DNA of 64,000 nt from Escherichia phage IME11. The position numbers and the translations under genes were made by a program. Shown in pieces: positions 3,569 through 64,000 of this stretch. Location of the stretch: sequence record NC_019423.1. One strand, 5' to 3'. The stretch's first letter is position 1. The number at the start of each line of letters is the position of its first letter. The notes beneath the pieces are model-generated. The model was not told the DNA's origin. It saw only the letters and a list, made by a program, of their open reading frames with translations, and did no database searches.

Positions 3569-5839
3569 ATGGAACACCAAGACACTTTTAAGCCTTTGCC
3601 AGACCCGGCTCAATCAGAGAAGTTAACGGACTGGAAGAAGGAACCAAGTATCCAATTACTGAAGGGTGATTTGGAATCTGCTAAACCTGCTCACGATGCA
3701 ATCATGTCTCAGATTCGTGAGTGGAATGACTTAATGGAAGTCAAGGGTAAAGCTAAACCCCCAAAGATTAAGGGACGCTCACAAGTCCAGCCTAGACTGG
3801 TTCGCCGTCAGGCAGAGTGGCGTTATGCACCATTATCTGAACCATTCCTCTCATCCAGTAAACTCTTTAAGCTAACACCTGTTACTTTTGAAGATGAGTT
3901 AGCTGCACGTCAGAATGAGTTAGTTCTTAACTACCAATTCCGTACTCAGCTTAATAAAGTAAAACTGGTGGATGATTACGTGCACAGTATTGTAGATGAC
4001 GGTACTGGTATTGCTCGTATTGGCTGGGAACGTAAGACCGTTAAGATTAAAACAGAAACTCCTGTCTTCCAGCTTTATCCCATTGAGAACCAGGAACAGG
4101 CAGATGTTCTTCAGCAGGCTTTACAACTTCAGGCAGAGAATCCTCGTGAATATGACGAAACTATGCCTGAAGATATTAAGGAAGCTGTTAACTATTTTAA
4201 TGAAACTGGTGAAGCTACCTATGCAATCCAGACTGGAGTTACTGAGGTAGAGGTAGAGAAAGCACTGGTTAACAGACCTACCGTTGAAATGCTTAACCCT
4301 AATAACGTAGTTATTGACCCAAGCTGTAATGGTGATTTGGATAAGGCTCTTTATGCAGTTATCTCATTCGAGACATGCAAAGCAGACCTCATGAAGAACA
4401 AAGACCGTTATCACAACCTGGATAAGATTGATTGGGAAAGCTCCAGTCCTATTACTGACCCAGACCATGAAAGTAAAACTCCTAGTGACTTCCAGTTTAA
4501 GGATGCACTTCGTAAGAAAGTTGTTGCTTATGAGTACTGGGGATTCTACGACATTAATGATGATGGTTCCCTGGAACCAATTGTTGCTACCTGGATTGGT
4601 TCTACTCTTATTCGTATGGAGAATAACCCATTCCCTGATGGTAAGTTACCTCTGGTGGTCGTTCCATACATGCCTCGTAAACGAGAACTCTTTGGTGAAG
4701 CTGATGCTGAACTATTAGGGGATAACCAAGCAATTCTTGGTGCAACTATGCGTGGGATGATTGACCTGTTGGGTCGAAGTGCAAACGGGCAGCGAGGTTA
4801 TCCTAAGGGGATGCTGGATACTCTTAACCGTCGTCGATACGATGATGGACAAGACTATGAATATAACCCAATGCAGGGTAATCCTAGTCAGTCCATTATG
4901 GAACATAAGTTCCCTGAGTTACCCCAGTCGGCAATAGTAATGACCCAGATGCAAAACCAGGAAGCAGAATCATTAACAGGTGTTAAAGCATTCTCTGGTG
5001 GTGTAACTGGTTCAGCTTATGGAGATGTGGCTGCTGGTATTCGTGGTGCACTTGATGCAGCATCCAAACGTGAGATGGCAATCCTTCGTCGATTAGCTAA
5101 GGGTATGGCAGATATTGGTACTAAGATTTGTGCAATGAATGCCGTGTTCTTATCTGAGAAGGAAGTAGTACGTATTACCAATGAACAATATGTAGAGATT
5201 AAACGAGAAGACCTTAAAGGTAATTTCGATATTGAAGTTGATATTAATACTGCCGAGATTGATAACCAGAAATCCCAGGATTTGGGCTTCATGGTTCAAA
5301 CATTAGGTAACACAGTTGACCAGTCTATTACGTTATCTCTTGTAGCTAAGATTGCAGAACTTAAACGTATGCCAGACCTTGCACATGAGTTACGTACTTG
5401 GCAACCACAACCAGACCCAATGGAAGAACAGCTTAAGCAATTGGCAATTCAGAAAGCACAGCTTGAGAATGAAGAGTTACAAAGTAAGATTGCACTCAAT
5501 AATGCTAAAGCTAAAGAAGCTGCTTCTAGTGGTGACCTTAAAGACCTGGATTATCTGGAACAGGAATCTGGTACTAAACATGCTCGTGATATGGAAAAAC
5601 AAAAAGCACAATCCCAAGGAAACCAGAACCTTCAGATAACTAAGGCATTGACAACACCTACTAAAGAAGGTGAAACTACCCCCAACATATCTGCTGCTGT
5701 TGGATATAACACTTTGACTAACGGGAACTCTCCACAAGAACGTGACTTAGCTGCTCAACAAGACCCAGCTTATTCACTTGGTTCCCAATACTATGACCCT
5801 AGCCAAGACCCAGCATCGGCTCTTGGCATGAACCTGTAA
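3569..5839 (+). CDS. portal protein
   Basis: 756-aa ORF between lysis cassette and capsid genes; size and position match the portal gene of N4-like phages (about 760 aa); no motif confirmed by eye. Confidence 0.65.
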
Positions 5840-13393: not shown

Positions 13394-15346
13394 ATGCCGA
13401 TTACATGGAGAAATGTTGATGCACCTAACTTCTCTGGGGTAGGTGACAGCATTCGCACATTTGGTAGCATGATTGGTAACGCCACCTCCGGCTTAAGTGA
13501 TGCACTGGGTAATTTCCAGAACGCTGCCAAGCAGGAGGCTGGCAATGCCGTCATGATGAATGCTATGCAGTACCAAGACCCAACTGAGTATCGTAATGCT
13601 TTGGCATCTGGTGCACTGTTTCAGGGGGTCGATCCTTCTCTGGTAAACCAGCGTACTCTCCAGAATCTGGATGAGCGAGCAGGTACATTACTGACTCAAC
13701 AAGGTCAACAGGGAACCAATGACTACAATGCTTATCGTTTTGGTCGTTTACAGAATACTGACTCTGCATTAGATAATGCTTCTCCTGCTATTCGTTTATT
13801 GTCTGAGGCTTATCAGTCTGGTGACCAGAACCGTATTAATGCTGCATTAGGTCAGACTCGTGAGGCACTATCTGCACTCCCTGCTGACCAACAACTGGAT
13901 ATGTTGGGTAGTCTTCAGGGTCAAGGTGGTCAGGCTATTAACCAAGCACAGAACCGTTTTGATTTGGGTGTGGCTCAACGTAATGATGCTGATAGTCAGG
14001 CAGCTATGGGTGTAATGTCACAGATTACCCGTGGTGCTGAGAACCCTAATGATGCACGTCTGTTGGCAGAGGCATATAGCAAGAACTTGTCTCCAGTTGC
14101 TCAGGCACGTTTGCAGGGATTACTGGCTAGTGCTTATCCTGGTGTATATGGTAATGGTGTAGGTGCTGCATCTGCTCCGGGTACTGCCGGTACTCGTCAG
14201 GGTTCCCCATATGATGTTACTTACCAGTTTGCTGGTACTTCCACTCCTATTACTCAAATGAGTATTGGTGATGTAATCAAGCACCAGGATGGTATGAAGA
14301 CGAACCAAGGTGCTTCACCTGTTGGTGCATTCCAGATTAACCAAGCTACCTTGAAAGACTTTGCTCCCAAAGTTCTCGGTTCAGATTGGCAAAGCCAGCC
14401 TCTTTCTGCTGAGAACCAGGATAAGATTGGTAAGGCTATCTTCGAACAGCGTAAGAATGGCAACCTTAAGGATACTTGGGCTGCACTTCCTAATGCTGGT
14501 GTTGGTGCATATAAGGATATGACCTGGGAAGAGATTAAACCAATTATTGCACAGGCAGAAGTTGGTGCTAATCCGTTAGCTATGCGTCAAACTGCACAGG
14601 GTAACCAAGCTGTATCTACCTTGGCTCAGGGTATGATTGGTACTCGTTCTATGCAGGATAACACCGGTAGTCTTAATACCGACTTCCTTGGTACTGTCAC
14701 TGATAATACCCCGGTAGGTGAGATTGCTAATCGACTGTTGGAAGGTGACTTTAAAGGTGCTGACCGTAACTGGGTACTGAACCGACTAACTGATATTTCT
14801 CAACGTGGGAATATGTCACCAGCTATGGCTGCTGCTGTTATGCAACGTGCACAGACTGGCGTACCGGAAGGTTACATTAGCCGTGCTATTGATGCGGTTA
14901 ACCCATTCATTACCAATGAAGCTGGTAATGGTATGCGTCTTAATGACCGTCAGGTAGAGCAGTTAATTGAGGGTGTACGTCGAGGCGAACCACTGGAAGG
15001 TAGTGTACGTAACCTGAGTCGTGCTCAGGCAGCACAGAACATTCAGGCAGCACAGACTGCTTATGATGCTGCTGTAGCTGCACTGATGAATACCCAGAAC
15101 AAGATTAACACTGGACAAAGTGGTCTTACTGCATTGTTACCTGCACGACAGGAAGCTGTTACTAAAGCTGCTGCAATGCTACAAGCTGCTCAAGGACAAG
15201 TACAAGCAGACCCGGCTAACCTGGCTCCAAGAGGTTTCCAGTCACAGGCTAGTGTGGACAGAGCGCGAGCCAAGGAAGATGAAGAGCGTGCTGCTCGATA
15301 CTTACGTCAGGCACAAGGTTTGCCTGAGTATATGCAACCTCGTTAA
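13394..15346 (+). CDS. internal virion protein candidate (650 aa), Gln/Ala/Gly-rich
   Basis: Low-complexity Q/A/G-rich protein directly upstream of the virion RNA polymerase gene; possible SLT-like segment (VGAFQIN) not confirmed. Confidence 0.5.
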   Translation: MPITWRNVDAPNFSGVGDSIRTFGSMIGNATSGLSDALGNFQNAAKQEAGNAVMMNAMQYQDPTEYRNALASGALFQGVDPSLVNQRTLQNLDERAGTLLTQQGQQGTNDYNAYRFGRLQNTDSALDNASPAIRLLSEAYQSGDQNRINAALGQTREALSALPADQQLDMLGSLQGQGGQAINQAQNRFDLGVAQRNDADSQAAMGVMSQITRGAENPNDARLLAEAYSKNLSPVAQARLQGLLASAYPGVYGNGVGAASAPGTAGTRQGSPYDVTYQFAGTSTPITQMSIGDVIKHQDGMKTNQGASPVGAFQINQATLKDFAPKVLGSDWQSQPLSAENQDKIGKAIFEQRKNGNLKDTWAALPNAGVGAYKDMTWEEIKPIIAQAEVGANPLAMRQTAQGNQAVSTLAQGMIGTRSMQDNTGSLNTDFLGTVTDNTPVGEIANRLLEGDFKGADRNWVLNRLTDISQRGNMSPAMAAAVMQRAQTGVPEGYISRAIDAVNPFITNEAGNGMRLNDRQVEQLIEGVRRGEPLEGSVRNLSRAQAAQNIQAAQTAYDAAVAALMNTQNKINTGQSGLTALLPARQEAVTKAAAMLQAAQGQVQADPANLAPRGFQSQASVDRARAKEDEERAARYLRQAQGLPEYMQPR

Positions 15347-15363
15347 AATACTTCATACTAATA

Positions 15364-15386
15364 AAAGCCCTCCGGGGCTTTTTTCT
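15364..15386 (+). terminator. rho-independent terminator
   Basis: A-run, GCCC-TCCG-GGGC hairpin, then TTTTTT. Confidence 0.55.
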
Positions 15387-26919: not shown

Positions 26920-27168
26920 TTATTTAGAATATTGCCCTTTCGTATACTCAATGAAGTATCCGAACTTAGCTTCATACTCTGTAGGGGGATGTTTGCTTAC
27001 ATGGTGTTTAGCCATACTAAGTAATTCCTTTTCCAACTTATTTACATTGATTGTATCTGCTGTTTCCCCAATAGGGAACTTATGGTGGTAAGCTGGTTCA
27101 GAAGTAATTTTTCCGCTTTTAGCTAAAACTTTAACGGAAGCAAACCCAACTTTAGGGTTTATATCCAT
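26920..27168 (-). CDS. hypothetical protein (82 aa)
   Basis: ORF, stop adjacent to the upstream gene. Confidence 0.5.
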   Translation of the reverse strand: MDINPKVGFASVKVLAKSGKITSEPAYHHKFPIGETADTINVNKLEKELLSMAKHHVSKHPPTEYEAKFGYFIEYTKGQYSK

Positions 27169-27898: not shown

Positions 27899-27972
27899 TG
27901 TCCACTACTGGATTTGAACCAGTGACTTTCCGATTATTAGTCGGTTGCTTTCCCCGTCTAAGCTAAGTGGAC
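27899..27972 (-). tRNA. tRNA gene, apparent anticodon AAT (Ile-reading) by hand folding
   Basis: Minus strand GTCCACT-TA-GCTT-AGACGGGGA-AAGC-A-ACCGA-CTAATAA-TCGGA-AAGTC-ACTGG-TTCAAAT-CCAGT-AGTGGAC-A: 7-bp acceptor stem, D arm, canonical 7-nt anticodon loop with U33, T arm with TTCAAAT loop. Confidence 0.6.
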
Positions 27973-27978
27973 TTATTA

Positions 27979-28054
27979 TGGTTACCCAGGCAGGATTCGA
28001 ACCTGCGTCCTAGTTGGTTTACTAGTGGGGCTTTACCACTAAGCCTACTGGGTA
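27979..28054 (-). tRNA. tRNA-like gene with encoded CCA and non-canonical anticodon arm
   Basis: Minus strand TACCCAG...GCAGG-TTCGAAT-CCTGC-CTGGGTA-A-CCA: perfect acceptor, D and T arms, but the anticodon region (CCACTAGTAAACCAACTAGGAC) pairs only as CTAG/CTAG with a 6- or 8-nt loop. Confidence 0.5.
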
Positions 28055-47121: not shown

Positions 47122-47127
47122 TTAGGT

Positions 47128-53926: not shown

Positions 53927-54241
53927 TCATACTTGCTTGGTTAGATAATTCAGATACTCTTCCGGGTCATCAAAGAAATCATCTTCAGTTTCAATATACC
54001 AATCCACCCAACGGTCTTCTAAACCCATCTCCACTAGTTCTTGATCAGAGATAGTCTCATCCCACATCTCAATACCGTTAGCATTAGCATAATTGCCTTT
54101 GACATTGTTCTCATACTGAAATAGGTCATAGTCTGCTAATGCATTCTTAATCTTAACAGCTTCCTGAAGACTATCTGTCTCTACATGAAATGCCTTCATT
54201 GGCACTTGAGGAATGTGCCATACACGCAATTTTTGTGTCAT
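53927..54241 (-). CDS. hypothetical acidic protein (104 aa)
   Basis: ORF; Asp/Glu-rich C-terminal half. Confidence 0.5.
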   Translation of the reverse strand: MTQKLRVWHIPQVPMKAFHVETDSLQEAVKIKNALADYDLFQYENNVKGNYANANGIEMWDETISDQELVEMGLEDRWVDWYIETEDDFFDDPEEYLNYLTKQV

Positions 54242-54255
54242 TTTTACTCTCCTAT

Positions 54256-54285
54256 AAATACAAGAAAGCCCTCACAAGGAGGGCT
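54256..54285 (-). terminator. rho-independent terminator
   Basis: AGCCCTC-CTTGT-GAGGGCT hairpin followed on the minus strand by TTCTTGTATTT. Confidence 0.5.
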
Positions 54286-54307
54286 ATAACCACGAAAAGA
54301 AATACAC

Positions 54308-55141
54308 TTACTCTGCAACAGTAATAGCGATGGTTACATCGACAGTACCATTGGTAACTACTACAGAAGTAGCTTCACCAGCAGCCACTGGTTTAACTGT
54401 CAGCACATTACCAGCAAGGGTAGCTGTAGCACGAGCAGAATCCGGAGCAGTTTTGATAGTCAGCGTACCAGCAGAAGAACCAACAGGCATAGCAGCAATT
54501 GTTACGGTCTTACCGGCAGCGGTATCAGCAGCAACAGACAGAGCCAGTGAATCAGGAGTAGCTACCAGTGAGCTTGCTTCGTAGTAGCCTACAGCCAGCA
54601 ATGAGGTATCTTCTACAGTGGTTCCATTAGCATCAGTAACAATTACTTTATAAGTACCAGCAGAAGCAGCTGTTACGTCATTAAGAGTCAATGTTGCAGT
54701 AATAGCAGATGCGTTCTCACCTGAATCAATATCAGCGAATACTGCACCAGCGGTATCAGCTTTAAATTGCCATTTATAAGTAAATGGTGCTTTACCACCT
54801 GCTACATCAACATGCCAGTTAATATCTTCACCTTCGATAGCGGAGATTACACGAGGCAGTTTGGTAGCAATAGTCAGTCGTGGAGTTGCTTTCATATCAA
54901 TAGAGATAGACTGCATATCCACGATGTTGTTAGGCCAGAAACCTGCTTCAGCAGGGTTTTTAGCAGAGCGTTTATACAGCAGATCACGTACACCGTGATA
55001 GATAACTAAGCTATCAGGGTAAGTGGCATCTGGGTGTACAAAGGTTCCTACTTCTACTGAACCACCGGGGATAGAACCACCGGCATCCAGTACAGTTGCG
55101 ACATTAGTGGTTTTGTTAAAACCTACTTTCAAAGTTGGCAT
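54308..55141 (-). CDS. Ig-like domain protein (candidate capsid decoration protein)
   Basis: ORF track 54308..55204; Met at 55141 preceded by GAGGA; Thr/Ala/Val-rich beta-strand repeats (TYKVIVTDANGTTV; TVTIAAMPVGSSAGTLTIKT) typical of Ig-like/Big domains; N4-like phages carry a decoration-protein gene outside the late operon (from memory). Confidence 0.45.
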   Translation of the reverse strand: MPTLKVGFNKTTNVATVLDAGGSIPGGSVEVGTFVHPDATYPDSLVIYHGVRDLLYKRSAKNPAEAGFWPNNIVDMQSISIDMKATPRLTIATKLPRVISAIEGEDINWHVDVAGGKAPFTYKWQFKADTAGAVFADIDSGENASAITATLTLNDVTAASAGTYKVIVTDANGTTVEDTSLLAVGYYEASSLVATPDSLALSVAADTAAGKTVTIAAMPVGSSAGTLTIKTAPDSARATATLAGNVLTVKPVAAGEATSVVVTNGTVDVTIAITVAE

Positions 55142-55215
55142 ATCAATTTCCTCATAAGTAAATAGCAGGGTTAGTATACACGATGGGTAAAAATAAAAAC
55201 CCACCTAGTGGTGGG

Positions 55216-55398
55216 TTAGTTGATTACACAGTAGAGAGCAAAAGCCATCCATCCTGCCATTACAAAGCAGCCAAATGAATATGCCCCATAGTAGCAATAG
55301 GCAAACTTAGACTTGTGGGCACGAACTATCGTAGCCAGAACCAGTACAGATAAAACTATCAGTATTAGCTGAAAGATTACTTCAAAATTGATTAGCAT
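55216..55398 (-). CDS. small membrane protein
   Basis: ORF track 55216..55431; Met at 55398 preceded by GGAGGT avoids the terminator hairpin; hydrophobic helices. Confidence 0.45.
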   Translation of the reverse strand: MLINFEVIFQLILIVLSVLVLATIVRAHKSKFAYCYYGAYSFGCFVMAGWMAFALYCVIN

Positions 55399-55415
55399 AG
55401 TTGTTACCTCCAAGC

Positions 55416-55449
55416 AAAAAATAAGCCTCACTCCCGAAGGAATGAGGCT
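55416..55449 (-). terminator. rho-independent terminator with CUUCGG-type loop
   Basis: AGCCTCA...TCC-TTCG-GGA...TGAGGCT hairpin followed on the minus strand by TTTTTTGCTT. Confidence 0.5.
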
Positions 55450-55582
55450 AGTTTACTAACACACTTGCACAGTCCAACCATTGTAGGAATCTACGAAGGC
55501 AATCCAGTCATCTTCTGACCAGAAGATAGAACAAACTCCTGGGGCTTTGAATCTATATAAACCTTGTCTATAGGCTTCTTTT

Positions 55583-56800
55583 TTAACTAAGGGCATAATC
55601 AGTCTCCAGAATGTCCTGCCAGAGGCTGTCATCCAGCTTACCAGCAGAGAACTCTTGCCCCAATACCTGAGACAGGATGAAGCCCAGCAGGTCACTCTTA
55701 GCGATGTCAGACAGAATCTGATTGTACTGACGACGCAGGTCATTACCGTAGTTAGGATGGCAACGGAAGCAGTCATGCACAGTCATTACAGGGAATGGTT
55801 TCTTAGGCAGAGTGTCAATCATATCTGCTACTACCTGACGGTCTACATAAGCAATAGTACATGGGTCAAGATAATCAATGATTGATAATGATAAGAAGCC
55901 AGATTTCTCATAGTGGCTCCATAGCTCTTGTACCTTCTCCAGATTACCTACAATCTCCCCATATTCTGATGGACCTTCATCACAGAGTTCTCTCACAGCT
56001 TCCACTAAGTCACGGTCGAAGTTACAACGACGCAGCATCTCACGTACCACCATCCCATCAATTGAGTGAGTGATGTTAGCAGAGAGCATACGAGTCTTCT
56101 CTTCAGTACCCTGAACCATACGAGTGATGTCGAATGGCTTACCTAAGAAGTTAACAGTCTGTACTTCAGGAACCATTACCTTAATGACAGCGTGGAAGTT
56201 GTCAGGCAGTACCCATATATAACGGTTGGCATCCGGGTTACCACATTGCAGTAAGAACTTGTTCAGTGCCCAAGGACCACTTGCAACAGTTTCCATTACA
56301 TTCTCAAAAGTCTTGAGACGAATACCTTCACCGAATACCTCTTTGGGCTTGGCTTCTGAGCCGTAGAATGCAGTCATAACTGCTTGCTTGGTGTCACTAC
56401 GTTTAATACGGGATGCTTCACCAAGGATGTCCAGCATCTTGTGATAGATGACTGTATAAGCATCACGACGTAATGGCTTACCATTCTCTCCCATGTAGTT
56501 AACTACGTTACACAGTTCAGCAGCAGAACGGTCACCAGTCAGGCAGGCCAGTAACTGCAAGCCTGATGATGTAGCATCCAGAGCTACGGCATAACCGATA
56601 GGCTTACCTGCTTTCATATCTTTCCATGCGTTTACACCAGCAAAGAACAGTGCAGATTCTTCAGCCTCATCTACCAGATTAAGCAGGTTAGTTTCGTTCT
56701 CATCGAACCAAGCAATACGCTCATCCCATGTCTTCTTATCTAAGCCATAGTTATTGGCGATATCTACTTTCAGGTATTCACGAGCGGTTAACAGTTGCAT
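55583..56800 (-). CDS. phage RNA polymerase II, catalytic subunit (T7-like single-subunit RNAP palm/fingers)
   Basis: 405 aa; motif A ALDATSSGLQ (compare T7 DGSCSGIQ), motif B RSDTKQAVMTAFYGS (compare T7 RSVTKRSVMTLAYGS), motif C VMTVHDCF (compare T7 HDSF); T7 sequences quoted from memory. Confidence 0.7.
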   Translation of the reverse strand: MQLLTAREYLKVDIANNYGLDKKTWDERIAWFDENETNLLNLVDEAEESALFFAGVNAWKDMKAGKPIGYAVALDATSSGLQLLACLTGDRSAAELCNVVNYMGENGKPLRRDAYTVIYHKMLDILGEASRIKRSDTKQAVMTAFYGSEAKPKEVFGEGIRLKTFENVMETVASGPWALNKFLLQCGNPDANRYIWVLPDNFHAVIKVMVPEVQTVNFLGKPFDITRMVQGTEEKTRMLSANITHSIDGMVVREMLRRCNFDRDLVEAVRELCDEGPSEYGEIVGNLEKVQELWSHYEKSGFLSLSIIDYLDPCTIAYVDRQVVADMIDTLPKKPFPVMTVHDCFRCHPNYGNDLRRQYNQILSDIAKSDLLGFILSQVLGQEFSAGKLDDSLWQDILETDYALS

Positions 56801-56857
56801 TTTATGTTCCTTTTGCTTCTTGGCTCCCCACTATGGAGAGCCTGCTTATTGGATGGA

Positions 56858-57097
56858 TTAGCCAGCATTAAATGATGCCAATACTATTCCTGGTTCCACA
56901 CCTTCGGTGGCAATGCCCAGATATTCAACGTTTACTTTGTCAGGGGAAGAGCACCAAGCGGAGTATAGTTTCCATTCCCCGTCTGGGTTAATAAGGCGAG
57001 CTTCCTCTTCAGTTTTAGCCGCTACTACAGCAGAATCGTATGAATCCCATCCCGTATTTTCTTCCTGGCTAATAAGCCATAGTTTTAATCTACTCAT
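56858..57097 (-). CDS. hypothetical protein (79 aa) between the two RNAP II subunit genes
   Basis: ORF with AAGGAG RBS 8 nt upstream of the ATG. Confidence 0.55.
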   Translation of the reverse strand: MSRLKLWLISQEENTGWDSYDSAVVAAKTEEEARLINPDGEWKLYSAWCSSPDKVNVEYLGIATEGVEPGIVLASFNAG

Positions 57098-57116
57098 CGT
57101 TTACTAGCTCCTTATC

Positions 57117-57278
57117 TTAGATGGTTACTACGTCTGCAGTTAGTTTGTAAATTATGGTTTTACTCTTAGGGTTCTGTAGCTTGTAAAGCTTCTCAAAGTA
57201 TAAGCACTTCACATATGTACCTGAGTAAATACACTCTTCATTAACCCATAGCTCATAGGAGCCAATGTTAGTCTTCAT
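57117..57278 (-). CDS. small ORF (53 aa) between the two RNAP II subunit genes
   Basis: Below the ORF-track cut-off; AAGGAG RBS 8 nt upstream of the ATG; start overlaps the upstream stop by 11 nt. Confidence 0.4.
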   Translation of the reverse strand: MKTNIGSYELWVNEECIYSGTYVKCLYFEKLYKLQNPKSKTIIYKLTADVVTI

Positions 57279-58086
57279 TTACTAACTCCTTATCAGCGAA
57301 CTCCAGCACAGCTTTGTTGTAACTGGTTCCCTGATAGTTGATGTGGTAGCCACAGGCATATGTACGCCCACGTTTGTCATATTTGTGAGCCAAGGAGAAG
57401 TTATTGCCTTCTTTGGTTACTAGCTCCATTACTTCCTTAGCTGTACGACTGTACTTCTCAAAGGCTTTAACACGTTTCTCATAGTCCTGACGGGTTTCAC
57501 CTTCTTTGGGTTTATCCATGTTAGGACGAGAGTCTTTTACGTAGTTAGCAACGTCCCAGTTAATGCAGAGACGTTGATTATTCATACGGTTGATGTGGTC
57601 AAGACAGACGTCCATCTCATGATGGTTCTTCTTGAGGATGATGCTTCCTTTGCTTTCGTAGTAACCGGTGTCACGGTTACTCATAACAGGCTTAGGAGCA
57701 CTTACGATAGGCAATGGGTACTGGAATGCTTCCAGTTCCATCTGTACATCTTCACCAATCTCATAAATAACACCGAACTTGTCGATGGTAGGGTCATAGT
57801 TGAAGCAGTCATTCTCTGCCATCTTATACAGACAGTCAGCGATGTACTGAGCATCATCTGAGTGACTCATGAGGGAGCCAATCATAGTTTGAATGTCAGC
57901 TCGTTTATGTAGGGCAATCTGCACCATTGCATCAATGAGCAGCTTATAATCAATTTCTAAATAGGCAGCGAATGCCTTAAAGTCAATTTCTTTGGAGTCC
58001 TCGAATTCCTTCCTCATGCGAGGCAGGAGCTGATTTTTATTGAATAGTACTTCGAGTTGCTTCTGATGTTCGATTGACGAGTACAT
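57268..58086 (-). CDS. phage RNA polymerase II, N-terminal-type subunit
   Basis: 272 aa; C-terminal YDKRGRTYACGYHINYQG resembles the T7 RNAP D-x-x-G-R region (DWRGRVYAVSMFNPQG, from memory). Confidence 0.55.
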   Translation of the reverse strand: MYSSIEHQKQLEVLFNKNQLLPRMRKEFEDSKEIDFKAFAAYLEIDYKLLIDAMVQIALHKRADIQTMIGSLMSHSDDAQYIADCLYKMAENDCFNYDPTIDKFGVIYEIGEDVQMELEAFQYPLPIVSAPKPVMSNRDTGYYESKGSIILKKNHHEMDVCLDHINRMNNQRLCINWDVANYVKDSRPNMDKPKEGETRQDYEKRVKAFEKYSRTAKEVMELVTKEGNNFSLAHKYDKRGRTYACGYHINYQGTSYNKAVLEFADKELVNED

Positions 58087-58139
58087 CGCTTATTCTCCTA
58101 AATGTGATTAATAACCAAAAGCTGCGGAGCAGCTATTAC

Positions 58140-58400
58140 CTAACGCTTAGTCCAAAAGGTAATACGAATACTATTTTCATTACCAATGTAGTCGATACGT
58201 ACATGCAAGCCATTACCATTAAACTCATTGCTTTTATTCTGATAAGGCCAGACTAGGCTAGTCATAGGTATTTTAATGAAACCTGATATGTGTCCTAGTT
58301 TAGTACGGCTCTTTAATTCGTTCTGTAATGCACAATAGATATCGTGTCGTGTAAGTGCTCTGGCTCTGACTTGAGCAGACCATAATTCTTCATAAGTCAT
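58140..58400 (-). CDS. hypothetical protein (86 aa)
   Basis: ORF. Confidence 0.45.
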   Translation of the reverse strand: MTYEELWSAQVRARALTRHDIYCALQNELKSRTKLGHISGFIKIPMTSLVWPYQNKSNEFNGNGLHVRIDYIGNENSIRITFWTKR

Positions 58401-58402
58401 TA

Positions 58403-58753
58403 TTAACTCCAGTAGTTGTAAGCATCGCCTAAGTGTTTACGCCATGCTTCTGGTAACAGTACATTTCCAGTTACGTTAATGAATTGGTATGGGTCCAGAT
58501 AGTCATTACTCATAACTTTGAAATCCCATTGTGGATTAGAAGATGCATAGGCAATGAAACCTTCAATGAAGCCATAGATAGCACCCTCTTTAATCCGGTT
58601 ACCATAACCATCCTTTACTGGAATGGCAAAGCTATTACCATAATGACCATAGGCCATACCCCAGCGAGCACCATGCTTCTTATATGCTAATTTGGCAGCA
58701 GCATTATTATGCTGCCCAAGTAAATTGGTAGTGAATACTAAGATTTCTTTCAT
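58403..58753 (-). CDS. hypothetical protein (116 aa)
   Basis: ORF with N-terminal beta-alpha pattern (ILVFTTNLLGQHNNAAAKLA); family not recognised. Confidence 0.5.
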   Translation of the reverse strand: MKEILVFTTNLLGQHNNAAAKLAYKKHGARWGMAYGHYGNSFAIPVKDGYGNRIKEGAIYGFIEGFIAYASSNPQWDFKVMSNDYLDPYQFINVTGNVLLPEAWRKHLGDAYNYWS

Positions 58754-58756
58754 GAA

Positions 58757-59137
58757 TTATCCTTTTGGATTTTCTACAAAGTAGTTATACATAGCCTTTA
58801 CTAGCTTCTCTTTAATAACTTCACCATGACATGGTTTTGGATAGCAGAAGCACTGTAAGGCTAATCCTTTCTCGTCAATGGCTTTATTACCAAGACGATT
58901 AAGTTCATCCAGCACAACTGGATTACCTTTATCAATCTGTTCTTGTAACCAGACTCTATACTTAGCAATTACTTGCTCTCTGGTTCCATGTTTACCAATG
59001 ACGAATGGATTGCCTAATGGTGAGCCACGTCCAATATACTCACCGGATTTACCGTGATGTTTATTAACAATAATGATTGGACGTGCAGATACACCTAGTA
59101 AAGCATTGGTGTCGTCACCTAATGACATAATCTTCAT
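58757..59137 (-). CDS. DUF4326-like protein
   Basis: 126 aa; IGRGSPLGNPF ... YRVWL ... LQCFCYPKPCHGEVI matches my recollection of the DUF4326 signature (GNPF, C-x-C, CHG). Confidence 0.45.
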   Translation of the reverse strand: MKIMSLGDDTNALLGVSARPIIIVNKHHGKSGEYIGRGSPLGNPFVIGKHGTREQVIAKYRVWLQEQIDKGNPVVLDELNRLGNKAIDEKGLALQCFCYPKPCHGEVIKEKLVKAMYNYFVENPKG

Positions 59138-59448
59138 GGTTTAAGTACCTGAAATGCAAACACAGGACGTTTACTACGCCACTGGTTCATAGCTAATTCA
59201 CTAGTTTCAGAACCATCATGTAAGTCATAGATAAATGAGATTACATAGTCTGGTTCCTCTGGGAAGTTCTCTGTAGAGAATGGTAGACCTGATTCCTTAA
59301 GGATTGGAACTAGTGGTGATTCAGCATTGCAGTACAGAGTAAACTCTTCATTGAATGCTTGGCTTGTCTGAGATACATAATCAATATTACGCATCATCTT
59401 ATCTACATCAGTAAATGTAGAATCATGAATTACTAGAATAGTTTTCAT
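59134..59448 (-). CDS. hypothetical protein (104 aa)
   Basis: ORF with 4-nt overlaps to neighbours. Confidence 0.45.
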   Translation of the reverse strand: MKTILVIHDSTFTDVDKMMRNIDYVSQTSQAFNEEFTLYCNAESPLVPILKESGLPFSTENFPEEPDYVISFIYDLHDGSETSELAMNQWRSKRPVFAFQVLKP

Positions 59449-59699
59449 ACCTTTCTCAATGTCCCATAGATGTTATTATTGACAATACTCAAATCACAGA
59501 AACCAATCTCTTCTTGTCTCCCAGCGGATACCCAGATATTGTTTTCTGTTAGCTTAGGTTTCTTAGAGAATCCTATTAATGAGGTATTAGCACTCTTATA
59601 CTGTCGGGTATATAACGCTATATACTTAACCCAGTGAGGCACTTGAATAGTATGTTTCATATACTCCACAGTCTTGCCTGTAGGATATGTAATAATCAT
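59445..59699 (-). CDS. hypothetical protein (84 aa)
   Basis: ORF with 4-nt overlaps to neighbours. Confidence 0.45.
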   Translation of the reverse strand: MIITYPTGKTVEYMKHTIQVPHWVKYIALYTRQYKSANTSLIGFSKKPKLTENNIWVSAGRQEEIGFCDLSIVNNNIYGTLRKV

Positions 59700-59917
59700 T
59701 TCTGATACCCTTCTATGAAGTTAGTACGACGAATGAGCTGAGTAGATGCCTTAACAGCCGTCTTCTTGAACTCATCTTTGTGTTGGTTTTCCAATATCTT
59801 ATCCCATTCTTTCTGGTTCCGGCGTTTCTGTAGAATACGACTACACTTCTTATGATTAGCAACTCCTTTACGTTTATTACATATAGGGCAAACACCATAA
59901 TCAGTTGAGTACATCAT
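59696..59917 (-). CDS. small basic Cys-containing protein (73 aa)
   Basis: CPICNKRKG...HKKCSR pattern, Lys/Arg-rich; possible zinc ribbon (only three Cys seen). Confidence 0.4.
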   Translation of the reverse strand: MMYSTDYGVCPICNKRKGVANHKKCSRILQKRRNQKEWDKILENQHKDEFKKTAVKASTQLIRRTNFIEGYQK

Positions 59918-60222
59918 TGGCTTAAAGCCTCCATTAATATTTTACGAATAACGTTAACATCAGATTCAGTACCAATTAAGCCAACAGGTTTACCTGTACT
60001 ATCTGTTACAAAGGATGCAATCCTTTCCATCTCTGCTATAATTAACTTGTCACCACTAATAAGACGATTACGAAGGTAAGCTTCATAAGCTACCTCTACA
60101 TCTTCTACCGTGGTTCTTTCATTACGAGAGAATGGATTACTTAATGGAAAGGGTAAATGTACCCTTATATTCCTGTCAGCTACCTTAGCTAAATGAGGAA
60201 GTATACATACTATTTCATTCAA
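59914..60222 (-). CDS. hypothetical protein (102 aa), TTG start
   Basis: ORF begins with TTG preceded by AGGAGAAATAACC; downstream of a terminator. Confidence 0.45.
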   Translation of the reverse strand: MNEIVCILPHLAKVADRNIRVHLPFPLSNPFSRNERTTVEDVEVAYEAYLRNRLISGDKLIIAEMERIASFVTDSTGKPVGLIGTESDVNVIRKILMEALSQ

Positions 60223-60261
60223 GGTTATTTCTCCTATTTAAATACATATCTAACTATTCAA

Positions 60262-60292
60262 GAATAAAAAATAGAAGCCCTCCTAATGGAGG
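60262..60292 (-). terminator. rho-independent terminator
   Basis: CCTCC-ATTA-GGAGG hairpin followed on the minus strand by GCTTCTATTTTTTATTC. Confidence 0.45.
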
Positions 60293-60304
60293 ACTCCTTA
60301 CAGT

Positions 60305-60517
60305 TTAGGAATATAGCTTGAATAGTTTTACTAATAACTCCATTACAAACCAAATCGTATAACCAATAGTTACACCACTGAGTAATGAACTGAAGTAACC
60401 CAATACAACAGCAGCAATATAATTATCACTGTTTTTAAGTGCACATAGTGCTTCTTTACCATTACGCTTCTGCCAACCATTCATGATTAGCAGTGTTACT
60501 AAGATAATAATTTCCAT
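60305..60517 (-). CDS. small membrane protein (70 aa)
   Basis: Two hydrophobic helices. Confidence 0.45.
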   Translation of the reverse strand: MEIIILVTLLIMNGWQKRNGKEALCALKNSDNYIAAVVLGYFSSLLSGVTIGYTIWFVMELLVKLFKLYS

Positions 60518-60702
60518 TAGTTGTTTCCTAAGATTGATGGATGGTTGAAGGTTACGATACGAGCTTTACTTTGTTTAAGTCCTGCATCAATGAACTCTTG
60601 TAATTGTTCATTGGTCATGCTGAGTGCCCGTTTACTTGCTACATTACGATTACGCATACGTGATACGTCTTCTTTGGTTCCCATGATTAATGACTTACGC
60701 AT
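60517..60702 (-). CDS. hypothetical protein (61 aa)
   Basis: ORF. Confidence 0.4.
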   Translation of the reverse strand: MRKSLIMGTKEDVSRMRNRNVASKRALSMTNEQLQEFIDAGLKQSKARIVTFNHPSILGNN

Positions 60703-60858
60703 GATTTAGTTGTCCACATAAAACGTTGAGGGTTACTGTTACGTACAATACGCACAGCAATGAGATGACCTTTCTGTACCAGACCATAATGTCTTATCTG
60801 AGGACCACTGGTCATACGATACATAGCTTCTTCAATAGCAGCCTCTATATCGGTGAAC
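60685..60858 (-). CDS. small ORF (57 aa) filling the 60703-60859 gap
   Basis: Below the ORF-track cut-off; ATG overlaps the upstream TGA (TGATG). Confidence 0.4.
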
Positions 60859-60859
60859 A

Positions 60860-61078
60860 TCACTGGTTCCTCTTAGCATAGTCTTCTGCTTCCTTAGCCC
60901 AGAGTTGCTTACGAACTTCTTTAGCTACGATGGAAGCAAACAGACACTTAACGAATACAACTGGTAGCTTACAGATAAGTACCAGCTTAGTGATTACCCA
61001 CTTGGCTCCATTGAGGATGTAACCACGTAGGCGATACAGCACATAACAGAGTATTACAAACGCAATGAAGTCCAACAT
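60860..61078 (-). CDS. small membrane protein (72 aa)
   Basis: N-terminal hydrophobic helix FIAFVILCYVLY. Confidence 0.45.
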   Translation of the reverse strand: MLDFIAFVILCYVLYRLRGYILNGAKWVITKLVLICKLPVVFVKCLFASIVAKEVRKQLWAKEAEDYAKRNQ

Positions 61079-61082
61079 AGTC

Positions 61083-61268
61083 TTACTCCTTATGGAGTTT
61101 ACGGATTTGTTTACGGGTAGGTTTAGTTACAAAGAAGTGGTCATAGCAACGACCATTTTCATCTTTTACAGATACCTGCCAACGAGCATTCAATGTCATC
61201 TTACTGCCCCAAGGCTGTAATGTAACAATCAACTTCTGTGAGTTATAACGGTTACATACTGTACGCAT
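61083..61268 (-). CDS. small basic protein, paralog of 61922..62128
   Basis: C-terminal FFVTKPTRKQIRKLHKE shares KPT(R/K)KQIRKL with the 68-aa ORF at 61922..62128. Confidence 0.5.
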   Translation of the reverse strand: MRTVCNRYNSQKLIVTLQPWGSKMTLNARWQVSVKDENGRCYDHFFVTKPTRKQIRKLHKE

Positions 61269-61373
61269 AATGGTTACTCCTTCATCTAATATAAATCTAT
61301 ATCTATTGAGTTACTGTTTCAGTACCCTTCGTCTAAAGATACTCAAAAAGTAGAAATAGCTTATCGTCTAGTT

Positions 61374-61402
61374 AAAAATAAAAGACTCCCCGAAGGGAGT
61401 CC
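61374..61402 (-). terminator. rho-independent terminator with CUUCGG-type loop
   Basis: GACTCCC-TTCG-GGGAGTC hairpin followed on the minus strand by TTTTATTTTTAAC. Confidence 0.6.
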
Positions 61403-61411
61403 AGTGGTTGA

Positions 61412-61795
61412 TTAGAAAGTCAGTTTACGAGCATATTTATTCTCGTCTGCTGGGATGTCAGCAGCCTCTGCTTTCACTCGACGAAGTTGAACTTGCAGGT
61501 TAATGATACCTTCTTCACCTGGTTCCAGGTTCTGAGCATATTCAATTAACTGTTCCAGCAAGTCGTTCTGTGCACAACGCATAGCACGGAAGTCAGCATT
61601 GCTGCTATTAGTAGGCAGTGGTTCCTGAGTATCCAGTGGAATACCAGTGGGCAAAGAGATGAACTTCTCTTCTTCAGAGCCTTCATTAGCTACATAACCA
61701 ATGTTTAACCAGAACTGTGCCTTAGGCTTAGCAGCTTTAGATTCAGTAGAAGCAGCAGCGTTAGATTGACCGAAAGTGAATTTTTGAATAGACAT
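61412..61795 (-). CDS. hypothetical early protein (127 aa)
   Basis: ORF track 61412..61888; Met at 61795 preceded by GGAGAG RBS. Confidence 0.5.
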
Positions 61796-61902
61796 TTTGT
61801 ACTCTCCAGATTTATGTGATTTACGGGTGAACTCGTCGGTGAGAACACCCAAACAAAAGGATAAAAGTTCAATGATTAGTGGATGCATTTACATCATCCA
61901 TA

Positions 61903-61917
61903 AGACGCGGAGCGTCT
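61903..61917 (-). promoter_or_regulatory. candidate virion-RNAP (N4-type) early promoter hairpin
   Basis: Template (+) strand AGACGC-GGA-GCGTCT: 6-bp stem, 3-nt GGA loop, upstream of 61412..61795; one of three near-identical hairpins. Confidence 0.45.
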
Positions 61918-61921
61918 AGTT

Positions 61922-62128
61922 TTAGATTGCTTCTTTACGAAACTCTCTACGCAATTTACGGATTTGTTTCTTGGTAGGCTTAGCAGGGAATGAATGACAA
62001 GCAACATAGTGCTGTCTCTCTGTTACGTTAGTAATCTCTGAGAACCAAAGATTCCACTGAGCATCCATCTTACCTAACAATCCACCATTGTTACTCTTGT
62101 TTGCAAACAGGGAAGTTTGAATACGCAT
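61922..62128 (-). CDS. small basic protein, paralog of 61083..61268
   Basis: C-terminal FPAKPTKKQIRKLRREFRKEAI; GGAG RBS. Confidence 0.5.
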   Translation of the reverse strand: MRIQTSLFANKSNNGGLLGKMDAQWNLWFSEITNVTERQHYVACHSFPAKPTKKQIRKLRREFRKEAI

Positions 62129-62161
62129 AGCTTAATCTCCAATAGTTAAATGATAGCCAAT

Positions 62162-62176
62162 AGATGTGGAGCATCT
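62162..62176 (-). promoter_or_regulatory. candidate virion-RNAP (N4-type) early promoter hairpin
   Basis: Template (+) strand AGATGT-GGA-GCATCT: 5-bp stem plus T.G, GGA loop; 34 nt upstream of the ATG of 61922..62128. Confidence 0.45.
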
Positions 62177-62182
62177 TGGTTT

Positions 62183-62383
62183 TTAAGGAATGTAAGAAAA
62201 CCAGGTTAGCAGTTCAGCTTTAGCTTTCTGATACTTACTGTCTACATTTTCATCTGAGATATCTATGTCTGATTCTCCATAATGATGGAGGTCAGACTGA
62301 TATTGTTCTTGCTGACGAACGGCTTCTTCAAAGCGTTCTAAAGCTTCTTGTGGAGATTCAGATTTGCAATCTGTTAGAGACAT
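62183..62383 (-). CDS. small acidic protein (66 aa)
   Basis: ORF; Glu/Asp-rich. Confidence 0.45.
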   Translation of the reverse strand: MSLTDCKSESPQEALERFEEAVRQQEQYQSDLHHYGESDIDISDENVDSKYQKAKAELLTWFSYIP

Positions 62384-62385
62384 AC

Positions 62386-62568
62386 TTATTCCTTAGTTAG
62401 TTCAACTATAAAGTTATCTAGTTTCTGCCTAGCTATTTCACACGATTCTACTATTGATTCATAGTCATCAGGGTCTGCTGAACCAGCCCAACTATCTGCA
62501 ATTGCTGATTCTGCGTAGTTACTAATTAGCTTTTTAAGCTTCTCTGCTTGCTTAGGATTAAGGGACAT
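62386..62568 (-). CDS. hypothetical protein (60 aa)
   Basis: ORF with AGGAGAAG RBS. Confidence 0.45.
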   Translation of the reverse strand: MSLNPKQAEKLKKLISNYAESAIADSWAGSADPDDYESIVESCEIARQKLDNFIVELTKE

Positions 62569-62621
62569 TTTACTTCTCCTAAAGTAGATAGTTATCTACT
62601 TTTGACTATCTATCTAATGTT

Positions 62622-62649
62622 CAAAACAGGAGACTCCGAAGAGTCTCCT
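62622..62649 (-). terminator. rho-independent terminator with CUUCGG-type loop
   Basis: AGGAGACTC-TTCG-GAGTCTCCT hairpin followed on the minus strand by GTTTTGAAC. Confidence 0.5.
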
Positions 62650-62656
62650 AGGTGAC

Positions 62657-62980
62657 TTAGTCTTTAGTCAGGATGTCAATTACTTTAGAATATTCTGCGT
62701 TATAGATACGAGCGTTCTCTGAATCTTTGCAGAAATCTTCGATACTTTTCTTACGCAGAGTCTCGTTCCTAGCTGTTTCCTCTGCCAGTTTATTAACAAA
62801 GGTATGCATTTCTAATTTAGTACGAATGGCTTGTTTCTCTGCCATAGTACTTACATATGAATTAAGCATACCTACTGCTTTAGTTGCTGTACCAAATGTA
62901 TCTGCAACAGTAGTAGCAGCTGAGTTAACAGTACCAAGTAAAGTTCCTGCGGTCATACGTACAGTAGCGGTAGTAGTCAT
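62657..62980 (-). CDS. hypothetical early protein (107 aa)
   Basis: ORF with GGAG RBS; first gene downstream of the 63023-63037 hairpin. Confidence 0.5.
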   Translation of the reverse strand: MTTTATVRMTAGTLLGTVNSAATTVADTFGTATKAVGMLNSYVSTMAEKQAIRTKLEMHTFVNKLAEETARNETLRKKSIEDFCKDSENARIYNAEYSKVIDILTKD

Positions 62981-63022
62981 GATGATAGCTCCAATAGTTG
63001 ATGATAGGACGACATGTCCATA

Positions 63023-63037
63023 ACATGCGGAGCATGT
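63023..63037 (-). promoter_or_regulatory. candidate virion-RNAP (N4-type) early promoter hairpin
   Basis: Template (+) strand ACATGC-GGA-GCATGT: 6-bp stem, GGA loop; about 50 nt upstream of the ATG of 62657..62980. Confidence 0.45.
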
Positions 63038-63062
63038 GTAACGTGTAAGGTGGGGTAGGGTA

Positions 63063-63181
63063 GTGGCTACACCGTCAACATACCGGGGGGGCTAGTTGAG
63101 TGTAAGGGTGTAGCCCCAGCCACACCACTGTAGCCATACATAGCTATCATCATTTTGGTATGCAAAAATACCATAGCTATC
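63063..63181. repeat. cluster of inverted and direct repeats in the 230-bp early intergenic region
   Basis: Inverted repeat GGCTACACC (63065-63073) / GGTGTAGCC (63107-63115); direct repeat CATAGCTATC at 63139-63148 and 63172-63181 flanking a TGGTAT/ATACCA hairpin; partial direct repeat GTGTAAGG(G)TG at 63036 and 63099. Confidence 0.5.
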
Positions 63182-63213
63182 CTACTTATAAGCAGTTAAA
63201 TAGGAGGAAGCTT

Positions 63214-63534
63214 TCAGGTGATTATGCGTGCTATACCAGGGTAATAGTCCGGATGGTTAGGATTACCACTACTATTCCTTACGGTAGCATCTTTGATAAA
63301 TACATGGGCATAATCACCGTATGGTATGAATACTGACTCACCATTTTGCAGGATAACTATCTCTGCATTACTGTTAGTAAGTAGCTTATGTCCCTGTGCA
63401 AAGTCTGCTAACTCTCCTGGCTCCATTATTAGTGTAGAAGTTCCATGGGTCATAATGTGGATGATTGCTTTTTCTGGTACAGAGGAATAATGCAGTAAGT
63501 CCGTACCTTTCATTCCTAATAGTTTAACGTTCAT
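63214..63534 (-). CDS. hypothetical early protein (106 aa), possibly cupin-like beta-barrel
   Basis: ORF; beta-rich sequence with His residues (HIMTHG, YAHVF); fold guess only. Confidence 0.4.
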   Translation of the reverse strand: MNVKLLGMKGTDLLHYSSVPEKAIIHIMTHGTSTLIMEPGELADFAQGHKLLTNSNAEIVILQNGESVFIPYGDYAHVFIKDATVRNSSGNPNHPDYYPGIARIIT

Positions 63535-63838
63535 GCTTCAGTACCTGTTTAAGAAGACTATCCATGTAATAGCAGTATGCCTCGGAGTTATCATCGTTGA
63601 TTGGTAATCCAATGAACCCGAAGGTGTATATACAGAAGTGATTAAGTTCATGAACCAAGGTGATAGGGTCACTATCTTGTGCATAGATAAGTACCGAACC
63701 ATCAGATAGCAGTGTAGTTACACCTTTGCTTTGTTCCTCTGGTTCACAGCCCTTAGCTTTCTTGTACTTCTTAATGAAGGTATCCCAGTCGAATACTACC
63801 TCTAACTGTACCGGATAGGGGGATGTGTTTAGTTTCAT
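63524..63838 (-). CDS. small HExxH-motif protein (104 aa)
   Basis: ORF containing LVHELNHF; ATG overlaps the upstream gene stop (ATGA). Confidence 0.45.
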   Translation of the reverse strand: MKLNTSPYPVQLEVVFDWDTFIKKYKKAKGCEPEEQSKGVTTLLSDGSVLIYAQDSDPITLVHELNHFCIYTFGFIGLPINDDNSEAYCYYMDSLLKQVLKHER

Positions 63839-64000
63839 AGAGATACCTTTGGATAAATGGTGCGTACTCTTTTAAAATCTTTATTAGGTCTACCATCTAT
63901 AGTAAGCCCAACAAACCCTTCTTCTATCCTTGGTTCAAAGAACAAGAATGCAGATTCACCAGCAGGTATCTTTATGGATTCCCCTGGATTAAGGATGGTT
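63835..64000 (-). CDS. hypothetical protein, C-terminal part (gene start lies beyond the window end)
   Basis: Minus-strand frame open from the window edge to a TGA at 63835 that overlaps the next ATG; not in the ORF track. Confidence 0.4.
   Translation of the reverse strand, partial: TILNPGESIKIPAGESAFLFFEPRIEEGFVGLTIDGRPNKDFKRVRTIYPKVSL

Follow-up and report, generated by a model that had tools for sequence, protein, structure and literature searches.

UUCG-capped hairpins as probable intrinsic terminators of the early transcription units in an N4-like coliphage

Three hairpins with a UUCG tetraloop stand on the minus strand of a 64,000-nucleotide (64 kb) stretch of Escherichia phage IME11 (record NC_019423.1), the whole of which we call the window. 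We propose from sequence comparison that these hairpins, here named Ta, Tb and Tc, are intrinsic (factor-independent) terminators acting on early transcripts in an N4-like coliphage, and we put the probability of this reading at about 0.85. This type of element is already known, and these very sites are already annotated in near-identical relatives. The new contribution here is the pairing of each terminator with one promoter of the virion RNA polymerase (vRNAP). The value of the result is mainly one of annotation: together, the terminators and the hairpin promoters delimit the early transcription units.

Three hairpins at the ends of early units

The region 54000-63000 of the window is 90-95% identical by megablast to Gamaleyavirus coliphages, including vB_EcoP_PE007 and St11Ph5, and the match corresponds to the minus strand and to these relatives' left genome end. 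Judging from this similarity, the window, which is 93% identical to PE007 and St11Ph5, is that of an N4-like coliphage (Gamaleyavirus; G7C-/N4-like Schitoviridae) presented in reverse orientation. Hence, the minus strand carries its early and middle genes, which are read from right to left. The annotation of St11Ph5 puts gp1, gp2, gp15 and gp16 on the minus strand of the window in this part, which places the three hairpins within the early region. They are as follows, with stem lengths in base pairs (bp).

Ta: element 62622..62650, hairpin 62650-62627, minus strand; UAGGAGACUC-UUCG-GAGUCUCCUG followed by UUUUG; 10-bp stem
Tb: element 61373..61402, hairpin 61402-61383, minus strand; GGACUCCC-UUCG-GGGAGUCU followed by UUUAUUUUU; 8-bp stem
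Tc: element 55416..55449, hairpin 55449-55424, minus strand; AGCCUCAUUCC-UUCG-GGAGUGAGGCU followed by UAUUUUUU; 11-bp stem with one G-U pair

All three are present where the initial annotation had placed them, with a GC-rich stem and C-UUCG-G on the transcribed (minus) strand. That annotation had also given the plus-strand motif as CCGAAGG, which is exact at two of the sites; the third reads TCCGAAGA, with the C(UUCG)G loop and its closing pair intact. The RNA folds have energies of -17.1 kcal/mol for Ta, -14.1 kcal/mol for Tb and -21.2 kcal/mol for Tc, corresponding to z values of -3.7, -3.9 and -5.8 relative to dinucleotide shuffles. An intrinsic terminator was defined by a GC-rich stem of about 5-14 bp, a loop of 3-8 nucleotides (nt) and a U-rich tract of about 7-9 nt directly 3' of the stem. 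The stems and loops of all three hairpins agree with this definition (5-6 G-C pairs per stem, 4-nt loops), and at 3/3 sites the loop is UUCG with a C-G closing pair, C being on the 5' side, as in the C(UUCG)G tetraloop. The U tracts of Tb and Tc are canonical, with 7-8 T's within the 10 nt 3' of the stem, and they are kept in relatives; that of Ta is weak (UUUUG). A terminator scan of the region 46-64 kb returned 25 terminator-like sites where 11.3 were expected, and ranked Tc and Tb near the top.

The hairpins are also where terminators should be, i.e. downstream of a coding region and on the transcribed strand. Ta begins 6 nt past the stop codon of gp1 and Tb 9 nt past that of gp2, while Tc begins 6 nt past the stop of an open reading frame (ORF) of 46 amino acids (aa) that lies downstream of gp16. 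The function ascribed to them in the initial annotation is thus backed by this distance of 6-9 nt from a stop codon, by orthologous sites with compensatory changes in the stem, and by the label 'terminator' at the three homologous sites of MT682708.

The recurrence of the loop is far above expectation. Over the 64 kb and both strands, no UUCG-loop hairpin other than Ta, Tb and Tc combines a stem of at least 6 bp with a C-G closing pair. UUCG is the loop of 3/11 terminator-like hairpins with a tetraloop, when the CNNNNG hexamer frequencies of the window itself lead one to expect 0.5% per hairpin (binomial P = 2e-5), and 30 dinucleotide shuffles produced no UUCG-loop terminator hairpin.

In 12 relatives the three sites are likewise occupied by hairpins. 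These relatives are eight sequences from IMG/VR, which were the close relatives given by a search with gp2 only, together with St11Ph5, Escherichia phage vB_EcoP_SP5M (SP5M), N4 and Klebsiella phage KP8. The Tb loop is UUCG in 11/12 of them, including N4, and UUAU in KP8. At Tc, UUCG is found in 9/11 aligned sequences, N4 having UACG and the metagenomic sequence L009 having CGAA. At Ta it is found in 7/8 Gamaleyavirus relatives in which the site was aligned, and N4 has CUCG. The helix of Tc is paired in 97.5% of cells across 11 sequences, with compensatory changes in 7/11 pairs; this pairing was matched by 0/500 shuffles, and registers slid along the alignment were at most 55% paired. Structure is thus conserved over sequence, both in the covariation at Tc and in the orthologues of Ta and Tb with compensatory stem changes. 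G-U pairs occur on the RNA-sense strand, at Tc positions 13-24 in 6/11 sequences and at the base of the Ta and Tb stems. The opposite strand would have C-A mismatches there; hence it is in the transcript, and not in the DNA, that the structure is selected. According to these alignments, each site is an old positional orthologue in common with N4 and not a recent independent invention.

Two relatives depart from this pattern in their own ways. In L009 (IMGVR_UViG_2700988792_000001, 14561-14586) the stem of Tc around the CGAA loop is a perfect palindrome, so that the hairpin is in effect inverted. In L002 (~460-500), Ta and the next three ORFs are replaced by a GAAA-loop hairpin that abuts P2, the second of the promoters described below.

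Virion-polymerase promoters and the units they define

The N4 virion RNA polymerase is an injected T7-like single-subunit enzyme. Early promoters in N4 are hairpins of the template strand: the GC-rich heptamer GCGGAGC has its centre at -11, a C-G pair closes the 3-nt loop, and the template base at +1 is C (PMC4496689). In the window, GCGGAGC occurs on the plus (template) strand at 63027, 61907 and 58124, each time inside a hairpin with a 6-bp stem and a GGA loop. These are the only promoter hairpins of N4 type in the 64 kb, and all three have a C at the predicted +1 of the template, as in N4.

P1: 63023..63037, for minus-strand transcription; template ACATGC-GGA-GCATGT, predicted +1 at 63019; predicted to drive gp1; homologous to N4 P1 (N4 position 93)
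P2: 61903..61917, for minus-strand transcription; template AGACGC-GGA-GCGTCT, predicted +1 at 61899; predicted to drive gp2; homologous to N4 P2 (N4 position 562)
P3: 58120..58134, for minus-strand transcription; template AGCTGC-GGA-GCAGCT, predicted +1 at 58116; predicted to drive gp15 and gp16; nearly identical to N4 P3 (N4 position 4551)

The flanks of these promoters align with those of N4 P1-P3, e.g. AGCTGCTCCGCAGCTTTTGGTTATTAAT in the window and AGCTGCTCCGCAGCTTTTGGTAATTAAT at N4 P3. Ta, Tb and Tc are each the first terminator downstream of P1, P2 and P3, respectively. This results in a simple map: P1-gp1-Ta; P2-gp2-Tb; and P3-gp15-(two small ORFs)-gp16-(46-aa ORF)-Tc. As early units of the N4 type, they would be transcribed by the injected polymerase in a manner that resists rifampicin and depends on gyrase and SSB, with transcription predicted to stop at Ta, Tb and Tc. 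The genes are the following.

gp1: 62657..62980, minus strand; 107 aa, middle-transcription cofactor (role from PMC4496689); sole gene of the P1-Ta unit
gp2: 61412..61888, minus strand; 158 aa, RNAPII cofactor; sole gene of the P2-Tb unit
gp15: 57268..58086, minus strand; RNAPII small subunit; first gene of the P3-Tc unit
gp16: 55583..56800, minus strand; RNAPII large subunit; in the P3-Tc unit
46-aa ORF: 55456..55596, minus strand; MPLVKKEAYRQGLYRFKAPGVCSIFWSEDDWIAFVDSYNGWTVQVC; between gp16 and Tc, its start overlapping the gp16 stop

In N4, gp1 and gp2 are cofactors, and gp15 and gp16 are subunits, of RNAPII, the middle polymerase (PMC4496689). Hence, the units closed by UUCG hairpins would supply the machinery of the switch from early to middle transcription, i.e. 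RNAPII and its cofactors. The 46-aa ORF is not found in St11Ph5 or SP5M, where Tc stands ~7 nt past the gp16 stop.

The hairpins had initially been taken to mark operon boundaries in both the early and the middle regions. For the early region this stands, and Tc separates the early from the middle genes, at the end of the early region. None of the three lies inside the middle region, and Ta appears rather leaky. A scan for cGNAg hairpins with stems of at least 5 bp revealed no further vRNAP promoter in the Ta-P2 and Tb-P3 intervals. The ORFs of these intervals, lacking a hairpin promoter, must therefore rely on read-through or on middle promoters. Three such ORFs without a promoter of their own (62568-61922) lie downstream of Ta, which has only four U's, and this makes Ta probably a leaky terminator. 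It is thus more likely to be a leaky terminator or an attenuator than a hard operon boundary. Termination at Tb and Tc, as far as their sequences tell, looks efficient.

Several repeats and blocks accompany the hairpins. An AT-rich inverted repeat, AAAGTAGATA-GT-TATCTACTTT, occupies 62581-62602, with Ta on one side and the Shine-Dalgarno sequence of the next ORF (62568-62386) on the other. It may serve as an operator, as an element of a middle promoter or as a hairpin acting in translation. Downstream of Tb, the block TTTTATTTTTAAC is conserved out to N4 and KP8. One might speculate that it is an AT-rich middle promoter of RNAPII serving the unpromoted ORFs that follow. The tail of Tb (61373-61382, minus strand), TTTATTTTTA, is identical to that of another hairpin on the same strand, at 55217 (tail at 55188-55197).

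How such hairpins would end a transcript can be outlined. The C(UUCG)G tetraloop would nucleate the fast folding of an unusually stable GC-rich hairpin as the RNA leaves the polymerase. The U-rich tract would then leave a weak RNA:DNA hybrid, from which the transcript would be released. The hairpin would stay on the mRNA as its 3' end and would probably also slow 3'-to-5' exonucleases. In all this we infer 3'-end formation, the efficiency of termination, the polymerase that is stopped and the stabilising effect. Tetraloops are known to favour strong termination (PMC9257418), and mini-vRNAP is reported to retain the termination properties of the full enzyme (PMC4496689). In the N4-like Pseudomonas phage LUZ7, terminators span a wide range of strengths, some of them changing during infection (PMC9163698).

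Loop use in Schitoviridae and in other phages

To reach diversity at the level of the family we used an alignment of gp16, which gave 80 loci and, at 80% identity, 67 clusters, hereafter lineages. In the following counts of strict terminator-like hairpins, orthologous sites are not independent and shared ancestry was left uncorrected.

Early/middle strand, up to the end of gp16: 23/139 with UUCG
Early/middle strand, downstream of gp16: 9/112 with UUCG
Opposite strand (background): 1/71 with UUCG

On the early/middle strand of these lineages, UUCG ranks first among terminator loops and GAAA second. The closing pair is C-G in 32/32 UUCG terminators, many of which have unrelated stems. A top-ranking loop that is always closed by C-G and yet caps unrelated stems marks the extra-stable C(UUCG)G cap as a target of selection. 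With its invariant closing pair (32/32), this would be a clean example of such selection across a phage family. It also fits the initial suggestion of convergent use of a stable tetraloop as opposed to duplication, as do the differing stems and the other loops at orthologous sites (CUCG and UACG in N4, GAAA in L002). A terminator directly follows gp16 in 32/67 lineages, always with a T-rich tail, and eight of these 32 have UUCG.

Is the loop a mark of early transcription? Among the strict terminators of six complete or near-complete genomes from at least four subfamilies, UUCG is found in 8/13 early ones, 5/30 middle ones and 0/15 on the late strand, which is transcribed by the host polymerase; within this window it is found in 3/4 early terminators vs 0/18. 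In the 67 lineages the contrast between the early region and the region downstream of gp16 is marginal (P = 0.056). One might speculate that the C(UUCG)G loop is preferred on the units of the injected virion RNA polymerase, where it might be adapted to halting a fast T7-like enzyme or to stabilising the few early mRNAs, but we regard this as rather doubtful. If true, such a preference would bear on how virion polymerases of the N4 type terminate, a little-studied matter on which the present evidence is suggestive only.

Some hairpins are shared between distant phages. KP8 (L012 8818-8839) and CB1 (L018 9899-9918) have the same hairpin, GCCACTCC-TTCG-GGAGTGGC, after gp16, although their gp16 proteins are each only 33-68% identical to that of the window. 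The hairpin after gp16 in Kuerle (L014 8174-8193) is that of Tb in Gamaleyavirus (window 61402-61383). Convergence, deep conservation or exchange could each account for these identities.

Bacterial intrinsic (Rho-independent) terminators (d'Aubenton-Carafa et al. 1990, as cited in PMC9257418) and the class I terminators of T7 RNA polymerase, such as T-phi, consist of a GC-rich stem that ends in a compact loop and is followed by a U tract, as do the hairpins of the window. Those of the window differ from the canonical types in that the polymerase they stop is presumed to be a vRNAP of the N4 type, and in that the U tract of Ta is sub-canonical.

Comparable elements are known in relatives of the window. 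SP5M (MT682708: 455-501, 1661-1701, 8238-8286) has near-identical hairpins at the same three sites, annotated 'terminator'; this annotation is a prediction only, and it comes without mention of the tetraloop or of a pairing with vRNAP promoters. The early terminators of N4 (NC_008720: 493-512, 1079-1100, 6680-6705) are positional orthologues, after gp1, gp2 and gp16 and downstream of P1, P2 and P3. Their stems are recognisably homologous to those of the window at Ta and Tb and unrelated at Tc, and their loops are CUCG, UUCG and UACG, whereas UUCG is found at all three sites of the window. Unlike N4, the window has the extra 46-aa ORF before Tc. Further away, terminator T31 of LUZ7 has, like the hairpins of the window, a cUUCGg loop followed by U's, and it was mapped experimentally with an efficiency of 91% (PMC10204088). 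In contrast to the sites of the window, it is a middle-region terminator (position 26996), the phage is GC-rich, and the stem is unrelated.

The C(UUCG)G hairpins of T4 and other phages provide a parallel outside the family. Intergenic regions of phages often contain CUUCGG hairpins (Tuerk et al. 1988 PNAS 85:1364, as cited in PMC8948821). As summarised there, and with the structure given in PMC2811024, CUUCGG caps a short GC-rich intergenic stem in a virulent coliphage, as in the window, and these hairpins have been linked to 3'-end formation and to mRNA stability. Unlike the T4-type hairpins as these sources present them, each site of the window lies directly after a stop codon and comes with a U tract, and the transcripts most likely come from a virion-injected T7-like polymerase instead of the host RNA polymerase. 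The hairpins of the window, as compact terminator parts, could find further use in engineering.

Alternative roles of the hairpins

Some observations sit uneasily with intrinsic termination at all three sites. The stem of Ta is trailed by UUUUG only, and the terminator scan missed this site because its tail has only 4 T, too few for the U-tract criterion. The orthologue of Ta in Kaypoctavirus has no U tract at all. KP8 and L008 have a UUCG hairpin without a U tract at this site. The UUCG loop itself is dispensable, given CGAA at Tc of L009, UUAU at Tb of KP8, and CUCG and UACG in N4. Finally, which polymerase is stopped (vRNAP, RNAPII or that of the host) we infer solely from the position of the hairpins downstream of vRNAP promoters.

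The short U tract of Ta and the tract-less UUCG hairpins of KP8 and L008 could be understood if the hairpins, chiefly Ta, acted post-transcriptionally, as a stable 3' cap or a processing barrier against exonucleases. CUUCGG hairpins stabilise phage mRNAs, e.g. that of T4 gene 32 (PMC8948821), and 3' stem-loops protect mRNA from degradation (PMC9257418). Early mRNA must also be scarce, as only about four vRNAP molecules are injected (PMC4496689). But this is at odds with the canonical U tracts of Tb and Tc, with their conservation in relatives, and with the T-rich tails of all the post-gp16 terminators in 32/67 lineages. We consider this explanation unlikely, while noting that it overlaps with intrinsic termination: a role of Ta in stabilisation or processing is plausible and compatible with its being a terminator.

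Ta, Tb and Tc might instead derive from a single repeat or mobile element, REP- or MITE-like, that multiplied within the genome. Ta and Tb do share a GACUC...GAGUC core beside the loop, and identical hairpins are found in distant phages, i.e. after gp16 in KP8 and CB1, and after gp16 in Kuerle in the form of the Gamaleyavirus Tb. Yet, the stems differ in length and sequence, there is no similarity outside the hairpins, and each site is a positional orthologue conserved out to N4. The extended motif ACUC(C)-UUCG-(G)GAGU, which we dropped as a candidate, is found in only 3/23 early and 0/9 downstream UUCG terminators of the 67 lineages. A duplicated element is therefore very improbable, and we rejected it on account of the different stems, the positional orthology and the lack of shared flanks or of an extended motif.

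We hold it to be just as improbable that the palindromes act as DNA, whether as cruciforms, as protein-binding sites or as extra hairpin signals for vRNAP. This idea is suggested by the early promoters of the N4 type, which are DNA hairpins extruded by supercoiling (PMC4496689) and lie in the same region as the terminators. However, vRNAP needs the GCGGAGC heptamer and a 3-nt GNA loop, neither of which is present in the terminator hairpins, and a shifted register giving a template-strand d(GAA) triloop in CCGAAGG leaves 2-3 bp only. Moreover, the G-U pairs are found on the RNA-sense strand only and correspond to C-A mismatches on the template strand. The absence of the promoter heptamer and the strand-specificity of the G-U pairs thus led us to reject a signal at the level of DNA.

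That the recurrence of UUCG is a product of chance or of composition is hardly credible, in spite of a 2.3-fold over-representation of the CTTCGG hexamer across the window (32 copies vs 14 expected): this excess is largely a coding effect unrelated to hairpins (20/32 copies are read in sense within ORFs, mostly as Phe-Gly in the frame NNC-TTC-GGN, and none of the 29 copies outside Ta, Tb and Tc is a hairpin loop), and the explanation is refuted by the binomial and shuffle tests and by the conservation of the hairpin sites with covariation, as at Tc. The other matches to CCGAAGG, at 1216, 2428, 17376, 25738, 38734, 56901 and 63618, are not hairpin loops.

The early region has a single terminator that does not carry UUCG.

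Fourth early-region terminator: 60273..60298, minus strand; 11-bp stem, c-AUUA-g loop, tail AUUUUUUAUU, -18.5 kcal/mol

This hairpin belongs to a second recurrent family of loops, c-AYUA-g, in strong terminator-like hairpins of the minus strand: 60298-60273 (AUUA), 55217-55198 (ACUA), 25831-25808 (ACUA) and 8694-8673 (AUUA). N4 also has an ACUA loop, at position 2522. We know of no special stability of the c-AYUA-g loop.

Searches against Rfam gave no match in 55000-64000, even at E <= 1, and the only matches in the window are two tRNA genes elsewhere.

tRNA gene: 27899-27972, minus strand
tRNA gene: 27982-28054, minus strand

At its right end, about 63120-64000, the window extends beyond the left genome end of the St11Ph5 and SP5M records and contains two further minus-strand ORFs (63214-63534 and 63524-63838), so that the source record begins elsewhere or is circularly permuted. 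Outside the early region, three terminators have loops of the wider UNCG family: 47123-47102 (minus strand, UCCG), 40698-40681 (minus strand, UACG) and 15363-15382 (plus strand, UCCG). The SP5M orthologue of the first of these, the hairpin at 47123, has UUCG in place of UCCG.

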